64,000 nucleotides of DNA from Promethearchaeota archaeon (GTDB taxonomy: Archaea; Asgardarchaeota; Lokiarchaeia; Sigyniarchaeales; SOKP01): positions 96,001 to 160,000 of the forward strand of contig JAUVNS010000002.1 in assembly GCA_030599585.1 (NCBI GenBank). Reading direction: 5' to 3'. Positions 22,393 to 27,732 of the stretch are shown here, piece by piece (the stretch's first letter is position 1; each line of letters begins with the position of its first letter). The notes beneath the pieces are model-generated. The model searched no databases and was not told the origin of the DNA. It was given only the letters and a program-made list of their open reading frames with translations. The position numbers and the translations under genes were made by a program.

Positions 22393-23916
22393 TTAAGTCG
22401 CAGCAACTCTCTTAGGAAATTTAGATTGCGCCTTAAGATTTTCCTGTAATAATTTATTTACCAACTTAAATCTTTTATCTCGAAAATCTTTTTTATCCCA
22501 TAAATTATTTAATTCGTGAGGGTCGGTTTTACGATCGTAAATATCGCCAAAATTATCTAGTCCTTCGTAAACAGTTAATTTGTAATCTTCAGTAACTAAA
22601 TGTCTTATCCGGGCCTCAAGAGGACCGACTTCTTCGTCGTTCTCAATTAAAACACAATCGCGTATTTTCTTTGTTGGATTTTCTAAGACTTGAGACATAT
22701 CAAAACCTTGCATATAAGGTGGGTGGTGTCGCTCTTTTACATTTAAAAGGTTAAGAATCGTTTTAGGAAGATCGATAGTACTAACTAAAGATTGAGACAC
22801 TCCGGACTTTGTTAGTCCTGGTACTTTCCAAATTAAAGGGATGTGACACGGTCCGACGAAAGGACATGGTCCTTTGAATAATAGCCCATGATCGCCCATT
22901 AAATCGCCGTGATCACTGGTAAAAATCACCATTGTATTATCTGAATACCCTAAATTTTCTAATGAGGCTAGTATTTTACCTACGCTATAATCTACGTACG
23001 ATATTGCAGCGTAAGTTAAAGCGGTAATTTTGCGAACCTCTTCTTCTGTTGATTCTCGTAAAAACGCTTTTTTAAAGGGCGGATTTTTTAAATGATATCC
23101 TAAATATTTATGGTGATATAAATTCTTTGCATCTTGAAAACTTGCGGGGAGTTCTATATCTTCGGGTTTATACGCGTCTTGAAATCTCTTTGGGGGATAT
23201 AGAGGATAATGTGGATCTGGAAAAGAACAATGCAAATAAAAAGGTTTTTCTCCATATTCACCCTTGGCATGTCTTTCGAGGAAAGCAATTGTTCGTTCTT
23301 GAACATAGGTAGTATTGTATAATTCTTCTGGTATTCCATCGCAATATAAACTGAAAAGGTTGTCGTAATTCTGAACTCTTTTTTTCATTTCATCTGCAAT
23401 TTTAGGGGCTCTTTCTTCCAACCACTCTGTATAATGACCAGCGCACACAGTACCATTTCCTGAAATCATTTCCACTTCGTCGTAACCATAATAGGGGAGG
23501 GGGAAATTCTTTCCTACAGGATCGTTTTTACCTTTATCTACCGCCCAACTAAATAAACTCTCAGCAGACTTAGTTTTCTGCTTAAACGGACCTAGCCAAA
23601 ATTGATGGTGTATTTTTCCAATAGCCGCAGTATGCCAACCTCTTTTTTGAAGCGTTTTTGTAATGGTAGGAGTATCTTCTGATAAATTAATTCCGTTGCT
23701 TCTAACGCCATGCACATTGGGATATAATCCAGTGAGTAGTGTTGCTCTGTTAGGCATGCAAATTGGATTAGTACAATAATAATTAGTGAATCTCACGCCT
23801 TCACTTGCCAACCTATCGAGGTTTGGAGTTTTTAGAATAGGGTTTCCTGCACAGCCTAAATGATCGGCCCGTTGAGCGTCAGTAATAATAAATATTACAT
23901 TCATTTTTTCTTTCAT
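22393..23916 (-). CDS. Formylglycine-dependent sulfatase (paralog of 19813-21342)
   Basis: ITDAQR, CMPNRATLLTG, GKIH, FPDPH and SDHGD. Confidence 0.92.
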   Translation of the reverse strand: MKEKMNVIFIITDAQRADHLGCAGNPILKTPNLDRLASEGVRFTNYYCTNPICMPNRATLLTGLYPNVHGVRSNGINLSEDTPTITKTLQKRGWHTAAIGKIHHQFWLGPFKQKTKSAESLFSWAVDKGKNDPVGKNFPLPYYGYDEVEMISGNGTVCAGHYTEWLEERAPKIADEMKKRVQNYDNLFSLYCDGIPEELYNTTYVQERTIAFLERHAKGEYGEKPFYLHCSFPDPHYPLYPPKRFQDAYKPEDIELPASFQDAKNLYHHKYLGYHLKNPPFKKAFLRESTEEEVRKITALTYAAISYVDYSVGKILASLENLGYSDNTMVIFTSDHGDLMGDHGLLFKGPCPFVGPCHIPLIWKVPGLTKSGVSQSLVSTIDLPKTILNLLNVKERHHPPYMQGFDMSQVLENPTKKIRDCVLIENDEEVGPLEARIRHLVTEDYKLTVYEGLDNFGDIYDRKTDPHELNNLWDKKDFRDKRFKLVNKLLQENLKAQSKFPKRVAAT

Positions 23917-24036
23917 AATTATAAAAAATCTATTCTTGCTTGTTGGTTAAAATTAAAGTCTATTCTATTATTTCATTTTTGATGTTAGAAAATATAAAGT
24001 TTCACGTAGATATTAATACTCCCACCTATTACTTTT

Positions 24037-24051
24037 GGCAAGTTTTATAAG
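24037..24051 (+). promoter_or_regulatory. Putative BRE/TATA promoter of the leu leader transcript
   Basis: GGCAAGTTTTATAAG (purine-rich element then TTTATAA) about 50 nt upstream of the leader ATG. Confidence 0.45.
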
Positions 24052-24100
24052 TGTCCTATAATTCACCTTTTAATAATAATTTTATAGGGATTAAAAAGTA

Positions 24101-24202
24101 ATGCTGATTCAAAAAACGACTAGAATTGAATCTAGGAATTCATTTGCGCAATTTTATCCCTTTTTATTGTTACTGTTAAATCTTCTCTTATTATTACTAT
24201 AA
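24101..24202 (+). CDS. Leucine-rich leader peptide (uORF) of the leu operon, 33 aa
   Basis: MLIQKTTRIESRNSFAQFYPFLLLLLNLLLLLL*. Eleven of the last 12 codons are Leu (TTA, TTG, CTG, CTT, CTC, CTA). AGGGA lies 10 nt upstream. The stop is 91 nt before the leuA ATG. Confidence 0.8.
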   Translation: MLIQKTTRIESRNSFAQFYPFLLLLLNLLLLLL

Positions 24203-24256
24203 TTACCCCTCTCTTCCATTAAAAGGAAGGAGATTTATATCTCTTTGGGGGGTTTT
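24178..24256 (+). promoter_or_regulatory. Putative attenuator RNA element with alternative pairings
   Basis: Outer stem ACCCCTC 24205-24211 / GGGGGGT 24247-24253 encloses hairpins CTTCC/GGAAG and GAGAT/ATCTC, followed by a short U tract. Alternative pairing: AAATCTTCT 24178-24186 with AGGAGATTT 24228-24236. Confidence 0.6.
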
Positions 24257-24293
24257 GTATAAAACTTAATAAATTAAATAGGTGCAAAGAAAA

Positions 24294-25913
24294 ATGGAAA
24301 AAAACAACAATGTAAGTGTTTCGCAAATAATGGAGGAAATTCGAGACTCACTTAGTCTTCCAGATAAAGCATATTTTTTCGACACAACACTCCGTGATGG
24401 TGAACAAACCCCCGGAATAAGTTTTACTCTCAAAGAAAAAATATCTATAGCGCAAACATTAAATGACATGAAAATTGATGTAATTGAAGCGGGATTTCCA
24501 GTTACTTCTAAAGGTGATTTTGATGCGTGTAGGTCAATATCTAAATTAGGTTTAGACTCTGAAGTAATGGGATTAGCGAGGATGGCAAAACTTGATATAG
24601 ATAAAGTTATTGAAGCAGATATGGATAGCATTCACCTTTTTATTGCTACTTCAGACCTACATCTTAAATCCAAACTTCAAATGAGCCGCGATGAAGTAAT
24701 AGAGCAAATTAATAAATATATTTCTTATGCCAAAGAGCATTACTCGACAATATTATTCTCAGCTGAAGATGCAACTCGTTCCGATTTGGATTTCTTAATT
24801 AAAGCAAATTTAATTGCAATTGAGAGTGGAGCAACGAGAATTAACATTCCTGATACTGTAGGTACCATCTCACCAAAAGCGTTCGGATATATGGTAAATA
24901 ATGTATACAAGGCAATTCCAAGTGACATTAGAATAGCAGTACACTGTCATAACGATTTTGGACTCGCCGTTGCGAACACTATAGCAGGATTCGAAAATGG
25001 AGCCTCGGAAGCACAAACTACAATTATGGGCTTAGGGGAACGAGCTGGCAATGCTTCTTTTGAAGAAACAGCAATGTCACTTTATGCTCTGTATCAATTA
25101 CCAATGAATATCATTACGCAAAAGATCTTTCCCACTGCGAAACTTATCGAAAGTTATTGTGGGGGTAAGGTAAAGATAGGACGCCTCCAGCCTTTGATAG
25201 GACAAAACGCTTTTTCTCACGAAGCGGGTATTCACGCTCACGCTATGATTAAAAACGCTCGAACTTATGAACCTATCACGCCTCAGTTAATTGGAATAAG
25301 TAGATCTGACAGTGTAGTGGATATTCTTAAACATTCAATTAAATTTGGAAAACATAGTGGTGGACATGCGTTAAAAGCAAAATTAGGAGATCTTGGAATT
25401 AAGACGAATGATAAAGAATTCATTAAGATAATGAATCACATTAAAGATTTTGGAGACAAAGGACATGAAGTTTCTGAAGAAGATTTTTTAGCAATTGTTA
25501 AGGATGTTATGGGAGAAATACCCGAAGAAGAACAATATGTAATTCTTGAAGAATTAACAGTTTTGACGGGTTCTATAACCCCTACCTCAACTGTGCGTTT
25601 AAAAATTAGAAATGGAGACTTCATAGAAAAAATCGCTTCTTCAGTAGGAGTTGGTGCAGTAGATGCGTCAGTCAATGCTATTGTTAAATGTTTTAAACCA
25701 ATGAGTAATATTAAGTTATTGAACTTCCAAATTGATGCGATTACTGGAGGAACTGAAGCCTTAGCTCATGTGACCATCGAAATTTTAGACATTGAAAGTA
25801 AAATTATAGTTAAAACAAGTGCTACTCATGAAGATATTGTGATGTGCTCGGTTTTAGCTCTTGTAAAAGGTTTGAATCTTATAGTTAAGAAAAAAAGTGC
25901 TGAAATGGAATAA
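24294..25913 (+). CDS. leuA: 2-isopropylmalate synthase (LeuA/CimA family, with C-terminal regulatory domain)
   Basis: DTTLRDGEQTPG, HCHNDFG, GERAGN, HEAGIH and C-terminal G.GAVDA...AITGGTEA. ATG at 24294 has AGGTG 9 nt upstream. Confidence 0.88.
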   Translation: MEKNNNVSVSQIMEEIRDSLSLPDKAYFFDTTLRDGEQTPGISFTLKEKISIAQTLNDMKIDVIEAGFPVTSKGDFDACRSISKLGLDSEVMGLARMAKLDIDKVIEADMDSIHLFIATSDLHLKSKLQMSRDEVIEQINKYISYAKEHYSTILFSAEDATRSDLDFLIKANLIAIESGATRINIPDTVGTISPKAFGYMVNNVYKAIPSDIRIAVHCHNDFGLAVANTIAGFENGASEAQTTIMGLGERAGNASFEETAMSLYALYQLPMNIITQKIFPTAKLIESYCGGKVKIGRLQPLIGQNAFSHEAGIHAHAMIKNARTYEPITPQLIGISRSDSVVDILKHSIKFGKHSGGHALKAKLGDLGIKTNDKEFIKIMNHIKDFGDKGHEVSEEDFLAIVKDVMGEIPEEEQYVILEELTVLTGSITPTSTVRLKIRNGDFIEKIASSVGVGAVDASVNAIVKCFKPMSNIKLLNFQIDAITGGTEALAHVTIEILDIESKIIVKTSATHEDIVMCSVLALVKGLNLIVKKKSAEME

Positions 25914-25945: not shown

Positions 25946-27220
25946 ATGGGTTTAACAATTACCGAGAAAATTCTTAGAGATCATTGTCAGAATAAAAAAG
26001 CTGTTGCTGGTGATTTTATTATGGCCGAAATCGATAAATGTTTGGCCAACGATATTACTGCTACCATGGCCATAGAAGCATTTGAAAAAGTGGTAGAAGC
26101 TTCTAAAGCTGAAGTTTTTGACTCTTCTAAAATCATTTTGGTCCCTGACCATTTTACTCCAAATAAAGACGTGGCTTCTGCTACTCAGTGTAAAATCCTT
26201 AGAGATTTTGCTACCAACCATAATATTACTAACTATTTTGAGGTCGGAAGAGGAGGCATTGAGCATTGTCTTGTGCCAGAGCAAGGATTGGTGAAACCAG
26301 GAGAAGTTTTTATAGGGGCTGATTCACATACATGCACTTACGGCGCACTCGGGGCGTTTGCTACAGGTGTTGGATCTACAGATTTAGGGGTTGCAATGGC
26401 ATTAGGAAAATGTTGGCTTAAAATCCCCGAATCTATTAAGTTCATTTATTCTGGTAGATTAAATGAATGGGTTTCAGGAAAAGATTTGATACTGTATACA
26501 CTCGGAAAAATTGGCGTAGATGGAGCTACATACAAAGCTATGGAATTTATAGGTGATACGATAAAAAGTTTACCTATGGCAGATCGGTTTACTATGTGTA
26601 ATATGGCTATAGAAGCTGGCGGAAAAAATGGAATTATTGAACCCGATAAGATCACCACATCGTATTTAGATGCTCTTAAAATATCGAAGGATGGTTTCTA
26701 TAATAGTGATAAAGATGCTGAATATTGTGATGTTATAGATATTGAATGTGCTAATATAGAACCACAGGTTGCACTTCCTCATTTACCTGACAATGTGAAA
26801 TCCATTTCAGAAGTTCATAGTATGAAAATAGAATTAGATCAAGTAGTTATAGGATCGTGTACAAATGGTCGGCTTGCCGATCTAAGAAATGTAGCGAAAA
26901 TTCTTAAAAATCGAAAAATCGATAAAAAGCTAAGATGTATAATAATACCAGGAACGCAAAAGATATATCTAAAAGCGATGGAAAGAGGATATATTGAAAG
27001 TTTTATTAATGCCGGCGCAATTGTCTCAACCCCTACTTGCGGACCTTGTTTAGGTGGTCACATGGGCGTCTTAGCGGAAGGAGAGAAAGCTTTGTCAACA
27101 ACAAATAGAAACTTCCAAGGGAGAATGGGACACGTTAATAGTGAGGTTTTTTTATCCAACCCCGTAGTTGCAGCTGCTTCAGCGATAAAAGGGTATATAA
27201 CCTCCCCAGAATATTTATGA
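25946..27220 (+). CDS. leuC: 3-isopropylmalate dehydratase large subunit
   Basis: DSHTCTYGA, GSCTNGR, CGPCLGGHMG and STTNRNF.GRMG. Confidence 0.93.
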   Translation: MGLTITEKILRDHCQNKKAVAGDFIMAEIDKCLANDITATMAIEAFEKVVEASKAEVFDSSKIILVPDHFTPNKDVASATQCKILRDFATNHNITNYFEVGRGGIEHCLVPEQGLVKPGEVFIGADSHTCTYGALGAFATGVGSTDLGVAMALGKCWLKIPESIKFIYSGRLNEWVSGKDLILYTLGKIGVDGATYKAMEFIGDTIKSLPMADRFTMCNMAIEAGGKNGIIEPDKITTSYLDALKISKDGFYNSDKDAEYCDVIDIECANIEPQVALPHLPDNVKSISEVHSMKIELDQVVIGSCTNGRLADLRNVAKILKNRKIDKKLRCIIIPGTQKIYLKAMERGYIESFINAGAIVSTPTCGPCLGGHMGVLAEGEKALSTTNRNFQGRMGHVNSEVFLSNPVVAAASAIKGYITSPEYL

Positions 27221-27240: not shown

Positions 27241-27732
27241 ATGATTGGAAAAGCAATTAAATATAACCTAAAAAATATTAACACTGATCTAATAATTCCC
27301 GCTAGATATTTACTTAATTCAGATGAAAATTATTTAGCTCAGCACTGTATGGAGGATTTAGATCGCGATTTCGTTAAAAAAGTTAAAAAAGAAAATTATC
27401 AAATCTTGGTCGCTGATTCTAATTTTGGATGTGGTTCAAGTAGAGAACAGGCACCGACTGCGATTAAAGCTTCAGGAATTACATGTATCATCGCACCTTC
27501 TTTTGCAAGGATTTTTTTCAGAAATGCTATCAATATTGGCTTACCAATATTAGAATTTCCCGATATTGGCAACATAAAAACAGGTGATATTTTAAATATC
27601 CAATTTGAAAAGGGATTAATTAAGAATACATCTACTGCTGAAGAATTTCAAATCAAAAAGCAACCCAGCTTTTTACAACAAATAATTTCCGCTGGGGGTC
27701 TGATTAATTTTGCTCGAAAGCAAATAGAGTAA
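27241..27732 (+). CDS. leuD: 3-isopropylmalate dehydratase small subunit
   Basis: NINTDLIIPARYL, NFGCGSSREQA and SFARIFFRNAINIGLP. Confidence 0.93.
   Translation: MIGKAIKYNLKNINTDLIIPARYLLNSDENYLAQHCMEDLDRDFVKKVKKENYQILVADSNFGCGSSREQAPTAIKASGITCIIAPSFARIFFRNAINIGLPILEFPDIGNIKTGDILNIQFEKGLIKNTSTAEEFQIKKQPSFLQQIISAGGLINFARKQIE

Follow-up and report, generated by a model that had tools for sequence, protein, structure and literature searches.

In a Promethearchaeota archaeon, the genes leuACD lie in a stretch of 64,000 nucleotides (nt) of DNA, called the window in what follows (positions 96001-160000 of contig C24 in a genome of 4.85 Mb with 33% G+C), and are preceded by a short open reading frame (ORF) rich in leucine codons, whose stop codon is followed almost at once by a G+C-rich island. 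On the evidence of the sequence and of its relatives, this island is predicted to be a single, strongly conserved RNA hairpin, named P2 here, and not the two-state RNA switch proposed in the initial annotation. The Leu leader and P2 together probably act like a leader-peptide attenuator, yet they fail to show the terminator and antiterminator features by which such systems are defined. The features directly concerned are the following:

24101-24202, plus strand: leader ORF of 33 codons, with Leu at 11 of the 13 final codons, all six Leu codons used, and a TAA stop at 24200-24202
24164-24199, plus strand: Leu-codon tract, presumed to hold the sensing codons and predicted to be unstructured
24205-24253, plus strand: P2, the hairpin abutting the stop, a three-way junction here, with a C/U-rich 5' arm and an A/G-rich 3' arm
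24254-24279, plus strand: A/U-rich spacer from P2 to the Shine-Dalgarno (SD) sequence of leuA, opening with UUU (U4 together with U24253)
24280-24284, plus strand: leuA SD sequence AGGTG, complementary to the 16S rRNA tail and followed by the leuA ATG at 24294
24294-25913, plus strand: leuA, 2-isopropylmalate synthase (NCBIfam NF002085, 554.8 bits with a cut-off of 517; TIGR02083, 654.5 bits; TIGR02087, 175.6 bits)

The island begins 2 nt past the leader stop, as first described, with the TAA at 24200-24202 and the first base of the island at 24205. The three-way junction, called fold A in the initial annotation, also agrees with the sequence in all of its stems: the outer one joins 24205-24211 to 24247-24253 by 7 base pairs (bp), including one G-U, while the inner ones join CTTCC (24213-24217) to GGAAG (24225-24229) and GAGAT (24230-24234) to ATCTC (24239-24243). 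The energy of fold A is -20.3 kcal/mol; it is contained in the minimum free energy (MFE) structure of 24160-24300 (z-score -2.4), and its pairing probability is 0.93-0.98 in the ensemble of the whole leader transcript. Hairpins at or beyond -20 kcal/mol were found in this genome at none of 248 gene 3' ends and in none of 196 upstream controls, and the leuA leader ranks first among 647 genome-wide candidates for the succession of a single-amino-acid run, a stop and a hairpin. The description of the island as structured RNA directly behind a Leu-run leader has thus held good, the structure being predicted, conserved and beyond chance.

The comparative set consisted of the leuA upstream regions of relatives, 55 distinct ones with a Leu leader. 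A hairpin stands at the position of P2 in all 55; it begins 0-4 nt past the stop (median 1), is about 56 nt long with about 21 bp, and has a median free energy of -20.5 kcal/mol. Compared with dinucleotide shuffles, the median z-score is -3.4, with values below -2 in 42 of the 55. The arm sequences are wholly different between clades, yet complementary within each ortholog, so that an ortholog's own arms pair at -20.5 kcal/mol and arms swapped between unlike orthologs at -13.0 kcal/mol. Without exception, the orthologs also retain the arm polarity (35% C and 42% U in the 5' arm, 40% G and 31% A in the 3' arm). Moreover, P2 is stabler on the sense strand than as its reverse complement in 50/55 orthologs and 13% of its pairs are G-U, which indicates a function as leuA-strand RNA rather than as a palindrome in DNA. 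Leader and hairpin also occur together, since five leaderless leuA orthologs are without a significant hairpin.

The stems of fold A, on whose conservation the original proposal depended, are retained in the orthologs, and their arms co-vary. In a genus alignment of nine sequences, 93.3% of the cells of the three-way junction are paired and four pairs have changed on both sides, the covariation score being 0.180 versus 0.133 in shuffles, with 3 of 500 shuffles reaching it. RNAalifold recovered the outer and inner stems from 15 diverse sequences, and found nothing in a plain MAFFT alignment of 52 sequences, in which the stems are misaligned. In a covariance-model alignment of 44 sequences, which was fitted to the model and hence leans towards the structure, 92.1% of the cells are paired, against 79.9 +/- 1.2% in shuffles (none of 500 reaching it), and 8 of 10 pairs have changed on both sides; this alignment also drew reverse-strand matches, and the pairs were counted on sense-strand rows only.

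Both flanks of the hairpin have been kept in a recognisable form. The Leu-run leader ORFs stop 82-132 nt upstream of leuA in the 55 orthologs, and all five of the final sense codons are Leu in 32 of them, four of the five in the other 23. UUA accounts for 71% of the Leu codons in the leaders versus 45% in the long ORFs of the genome, and the leader Leu codons pair less, both with the hairpin and with the SD region, than synonymous recodings do. Given this bias and this weaker pairing, both flanks of P2 look selected to remain unstructured.

On the downstream side, the leuA SD sequence starts 26 nt past the end of P2 and, as previously stated, lies outside the stems of fold A. In the orthologs, P2 ends at a tightly kept spacing, a median of 36 nt (interquartile range 35-39), before the leuA ATG, and AGGT is found 11-13 nt upstream of this ATG in most of them. 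The spacer also carries a conserved AAATAAAT-like stretch about 19-26 nt upstream of the leuA ATG. As regards the hairpin itself, the end of its 3' arm binds the 16S tail (GATCACCTCCT) at a mean of -6.35 kcal/mol, versus -4.46 for the leuA SD window and -2.09 for random 15-mers, and this binding is strong because the polarity of the arms is kept. Opening of P2 could expose a ribosome landing site; the affinity could equally be explained by plain composition, or by selection against pairing of the 5' arm with the Leu tract. No conserved second ORF or hidden start codon was found between the leader stop and leuA in the orthologs, and a hidden start or second small ORF locked within P2 was discarded for lack of conservation.

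A second leader of this kind precedes leuS (leucine-tRNA ligase; NF008957, 1070.8 bits), located on the minus strand of contig C21 at 125733-128900 (locus L076:734-3875). There, a 30-codon ORF ending in LLQALLLSLL is followed, directly past its stop, by a hairpin with a U-rich loop (CUUUUUCUUUU). The hairpin of the leuS leader begins 2-4 nt past the stop, is 50-57 nt long and is unrelated in sequence to the P2 of leuA; leader and hairpin are kept in about 18 genus genomes, with leaders ending in LLAVLLLLL. Since the abutment of the hairpin on the stop codon is common to the leuA and leuS leaders, steric occlusion by the ribosome is favoured over a switch between RNA and RNA. As for other amino acids, a His-run leader candidate on contig C32 was rejected as antisense to a gene, hisG lies inside an operon, and no leader with run, stop and hairpin was found, under the criteria used, before the four ilvB-like genes.

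The encounter of ribosome and hairpin was modelled with a mask reaching 15 nt upstream and 12 nt downstream of the first A-site base and moved codon by codon. In the orthologs, the spacing counted from the first base of the last Leu codon to the start of the closing stem has a median of 8-9 nt (range 3-13). Under the mask, pairing of the closing stem in the window is at least 0.93 for A sites up to 24191; with the A site at 24194 it is 0.36, and with the A site at 24197 or on the stop codon it is 0, while the inner hairpins remain folded. With the footprint placed at each Leu codon in turn, fold A stays intact until its 5' arm is covered, contrary to a choice between folds made along the Leu codons. 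In this model P2 is opened by the ribosome alone, when it stands on the last two or three codons.

The reading preferred here is that P2 serves as the sole effector hairpin in a leader-peptide control of leuACD that senses leucine, with the ribosome as the competitor of P2; this reading is put forward tentatively, at a little short of an even chance. We infer that, when Leu-tRNA is scarce, ribosomes would linger at the final Leu codons and keep the G+C-rich closing stem from pairing, this stem being within the predicted downstream reach of a ribosome with the last Leu codon or the stop in its A site. When Leu-tRNA is plentiful, ribosomes would terminate and leave, and P2 would close. A closed P2 would then lower the expression of leuACD and an open one would raise it. 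For the output step, premature 3'-end formation is a candidate, either dependent on the hairpin or assisted by a factor (FttA/aCPSF1), and so is processing or decay of the RNA. In a third candidate route, the SD-like 3' strand would be exposed and serve ribosomes as a landing site, 36 nt upstream of the leuA start codon. A more specific version, in which the ribosome on the terminal Leu codons unzips P2 and the exposed purine-rich 3' strand switches leuACD on through translation or through factor-dependent 3'-end formation, must be regarded as doubtful.

Several points weigh against a leucine-sensing role of P2, the first of which concern its output. The U tract after P2 is not conserved across the orthologs (median 2-4 U in 8 nt), most of which lack one: the U4 of the window stands against UUGUGU or AAUGCG in genus relatives, and in many orthologs U runs lie inside the pyrimidine-rich arm or the loop of P2. 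The U tract had been described from the start as short, and an output other than a bacterial intrinsic terminator had been suggested; the U4 here and its lack of conservation are in line with that judgement. A scan for bacterial-type terminators flags just the small inner hairpin of P2, and a terminator of this type is an unlikely output. Published archaeal terminators are tracts of four to seven U for which a hairpin is not required (PMC8716108). At the gene 3' ends of this genome, T runs are modestly enriched and hairpins are not; with a mean MFE of -6.6 kcal/mol and none reaching -20 at these ends, P2 was rejected as an ordinary terminator of this genome. As the published archaeal terminators and the gene ends here are both hairpin-free, an output by termination would be without precedent in this setting. 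A simple translational output is not predicted either, the predicted accessibility of the leuA SD sequence being unchanged by the position of the ribosome. The remaining points concern the ribosome: under starvation, the first stalls should occur at upstream Leu codons, from which the footprint in the model falls short of P2, so that out of as many as 11 Leu codons in a long run, just the final two or three would have an effect. Finally, a terminating ribosome would open P2 as well, and discrimination would therefore rest on dwell time alone.

Apart from sensing by the ribosome, P2 might be constitutive, with a protective or insulating role: it would stabilise the leuACD mRNA, shield the untranslated gap of 90 nt from FttA-type polarity, or halt sliding leader ribosomes, and leucine would be sensed, if at all, through another step. 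This is unlikely, although the prediction of P2 in almost every state, the lack of a conserved alternative fold and the fixed spacing to the leuA start would all suit such a role. A mere stabiliser would need neither the abutment on the stop within 0-4 nt, seen also before leuS, nor the strict co-occurrence with a Leu leader.

All other alternatives require that P2, or the SD sequence behind it, be paired with some further segment of the transcript, or act as DNA. Four types of alternative pairing were tested and none proved to be conserved; just that between the leader body and the 5' arm of P2 lay marginally above its controls, and in some clades only. This pairing bears on a classical four-segment attenuator, in which the segment upstream of the Leu run would be the following:

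24106-24140, plus strand: P1, a tentative weak stem in leader codons 2-13, predicted to pair 24106-24110 with 24136-24140 and 24120-24124 with 24131-24135

In such an attenuator, the 3' strand of P1 would pair with the 5' arm of P2 in an antiterminator-like helix competing with both P1 and P2, an arrangement which is distinctly unlikely here. The pairing between leader body and 5' arm reaches -11.3 kcal/mol versus -10.2 after synonymous recoding (p = 0.018, a marginal difference); it is strong in some clades (-16 to -21 kcal/mol) and, when the RNA is cut before the 3' arm, the helix is the predicted fold in three clades. However, it is weak in the genus of the window (-6.0 kcal/mol), P2 is retained in every full-length fold, and the Leu run lies between the two segments, so that a ribosome stalled on it would occupy the loop without releasing the segment upstream of it. 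P1, moreover, is not stabler than shuffles (median z-score -0.2), and was dismissed as a stable hairpin. Long-range pairing of the P1 kind does recur at the same position in other clades, between a CUUCAAA type of sequence (codons 3-6) and a UUUGARG type (codons 15-17). The same pairing explains the conserved M-K-x-L-Q start and S-L-R middle of the leader peptides.

Translational attenuation, in which the ribosome-binding site of leuA would be sequestered by the Leu tract or by the anti-SD-like 5' arm, has a slim chance. The design is known in mycobacteria (10.1101/834739), and the leuA SD sequence is often paired with the Leu tract in MFE folds. The mean probability of that pairing is 0.55, though, against 0.60 with shuffled and 0.55 with swapped tracts, and the natural duplex of Leu tract and SD region (-9.3 kcal/mol) is weaker than with synonymous recoding (-10.25; p = 0.001) or a shuffled spacer (-10.2). 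Sequestration of the SD by the Leu tract was consequently set aside, its pairing being equal to or weaker than that of the shuffled, swapped and recoded controls. The same was done with pairing of the 5' arm to the SD region, which at -7.6 kcal/mol does not differ from its controls (-7.2 and -7.4). Furthermore, the ribosome mask does not free the SD sequence.

The switch proposed in the initial annotation, with two mutually exclusive folds A and B selected by the position of the ribosome on the Leu codons, is very improbable. Fold B, joining 24178-24186 to 24228-24236, can indeed be written in the window with 9 bp including one G-U, and 82.7% of its cells are paired over the nine genus sequences; that part of the claim stands. 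As a competitor it fails: its helix alone amounts to -4.8 kcal/mol, and the best structure retaining it to -11.9 kcal/mol, versus -22.2 for the MFE structure, in an ensemble where fold A is present at 0.93-0.98. In the genus no compensatory change was seen and fold B is on a level with shuffles; where relatives carry synonymous CUU-to-CUA changes, its helix is disrupted without repair. Over the 55 orthologs, the duplex of Leu tract and hairpin is weaker than with synonymous recoding (-8.6 vs -9.3 kcal/mol; p = 0.035) and similar to that with swapped leaders (-8.3). The third pairing option suggested originally is a bulged 8-bp duplex of -7.2 kcal/mol. The logic, too, would be reversed: ribosomes standing on the Leu codons would keep fold B from forming, to the advantage of fold A. 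With fold B some 10 kcal/mol worse, without covariation and not above recoding, a selection between two folds by the ribosome is not supported. Fold B is most simply a by-product of composition, because pyrimidines predominate in the Leu tract as well as in the 5' arm, and the purine-rich 3' half can be matched with either.

A role of the inverted repeat at the DNA level, as a leuA operator or promoter element, is hardly credible: the A/T-rich inner stems and the stretch after P2 do look TATA-like, but the arms change between clades while remaining complementary, the strand asymmetry and G-U pairs reported above led us to reject a palindrome or operator, and the AGGT SD at -12 is conserved, with SD-like motifs before leuC and leuD too.

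With regard to known systems, the enterobacterial leu leader leuL (RF00512), like trpL, hisL and pheL, consists of a short, translated ORF in which cognate codons form a run, placed directly before the operon, then a stable hairpin, and the presumed signal is likewise the speed of the ribosome at the cognate codons. The leader ORF described here corresponds to this type by its sequence, as a short ORF with its run of cognate codons before the operon, and its translation is putative. A search with Rfam cmscan of 23700-24700, with E values up to 10, gave three chance matches to unrelated families and none to RF00512 or to a T-box. The system differs from the leuL type in its archaeal host, in the lack of an RF00512 match and in two of the parts that define an attenuator: the hairpin is present but has no conserved U tract behind it, as an intrinsic terminator would, and no exclusive antiterminator pairing is conserved, since fold B is without covariation and the pairing of leader body and 5' arm is marginal and limited to some clades. 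In addition, the ORF here ends with its control codons, and its stop codon adjoins the hairpin.

Blocking of a hairpin by the ribosome itself, through occupation of its 5' arm, is known from the pyrBI attenuator of E. coli, which senses UTP via pausing of RNA polymerase and uses a normal intrinsic terminator. The ribosome as competitor of the hairpin would be common to pyrBI and P2, whereas the signal here would be Leu-tRNA. The shunt elements of plant pararetroviruses have the stop of a short ORF a few nt before a long hairpin and the next start shortly after it. The layout is the same as that of P2, but shunting is eukaryotic and dependent on scanning, and its logic, by which termination promotes downstream initiation, would turn leuA on under leucine abundance, opposite to what a biosynthetic gene requires. 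In translational attenuators (ermC, cat and the mycobacterial poly-Cys small ORFs) the SD sequence or start codon is sequestered by a structure that the stalled ribosome disrupts, which was not found here. In the leaderless poly-Cys small ORFs of mycobacteria, the Cys tract pairs with the SD sequence of the next gene (10.1101/834739). They likewise have the sensing codons at the 3' end of the ORF and a stalled ribosome that prevents an inhibitory pairing; in contrast, the pairing of Leu tract and SD is here not above controls, and the conserved structure is a separate hairpin. It is possible, though rather improbable, that Asgard archaea possess in this design, without antiterminator RNA or intrinsic terminator, a leucine gauge not known in bacteria.

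The host is archaeal, as the initial annotation had implied: the 16S gene of the genome scores 1458.5 bits against the archaeal small-subunit rRNA model, and leuA orthologs at 72-95% identity sit on public contigs named as Promethearchaeota or Promethearchaeia metagenome-assembled genomes (Loki-type Asgard archaea). The remaining features of the locus are:

22393-23916, strand opposite to leuA: sulfatase-family gene, the upstream neighbour of the leader
24043-24050, plus strand: TATA-like box TTTTATAA, putative promoter element of the leader-leuACD transcript, with A/G-rich bases upstream of it
24086-24091, plus strand: SD-like AGGGAT of the leader ORF, 9 nt upstream of the leader ATG
25946-27220, plus strand: leuC, downstream of leuA, with a clear NCBIfam match
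27241-27732, plus strand: leuD, downstream of leuC, with a clear NCBIfam match

A TTTWTAA box with an A-rich stretch before it is found about 50-60 nt upstream of the leader ATG in nearly all orthologs, and a leader SD sequence (GGGAT, GGGAA or AGGAT) at -14 to -9 from that ATG. The conserved box and SD fit a single transcript running from the leader into leuA, and leuC and leuD are each preceded by an SD-like motif. At 24035-24062, a sigma-70-like match (TTGGCA-16-TATAAT, 11 of 12 positions) coincides in part with the leader's archaeal TATA-like box; genus relatives such as L005 do not retain this match, which is probably due to chance. An ORF of 121 codons on the minus strand (24266-24631), antisense to the start of leuA, is probably spurious.

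The leuA type described here is present in just 8 of 24 sampled genus genomes, several of them more than 95% complete, and the leu operon may be an accessory trait in the genus. In two entries of the same contig (L010 and L066, CAZEPC010000095.1), the Leu leader and hairpin lie 362 nt upstream of leuA, a spacing that results from the duplication of about 130 nt, including the leuA start, around an N run, and that looks like an assembly artefact.

In bacteria, attenuation mediated by the ribosome belongs to textbook knowledge. No published case of leader-peptide attenuation in archaea, including Asgard archaea, was found in the full-text literature, most subscription journals being outside its coverage. 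The useful result obtained here is a negative one, namely that the leader is followed by one hairpin and not by a two-state RNA switch. With such a leader, it becomes testable what a hairpin can do to expression where RNA polymerase terminates at hairpin-free U tracts. If the control by leader and P2 is real, its architecture, placed before both leuA and leuS, would differ from the bacterial one in doing without a terminator or an RNA antiterminator. Reading of the amino-acid supply by the ribosome would then extend to archaea, on the example of the Asgard group, to which eukaryotes are more closely related than to any other prokaryotes.

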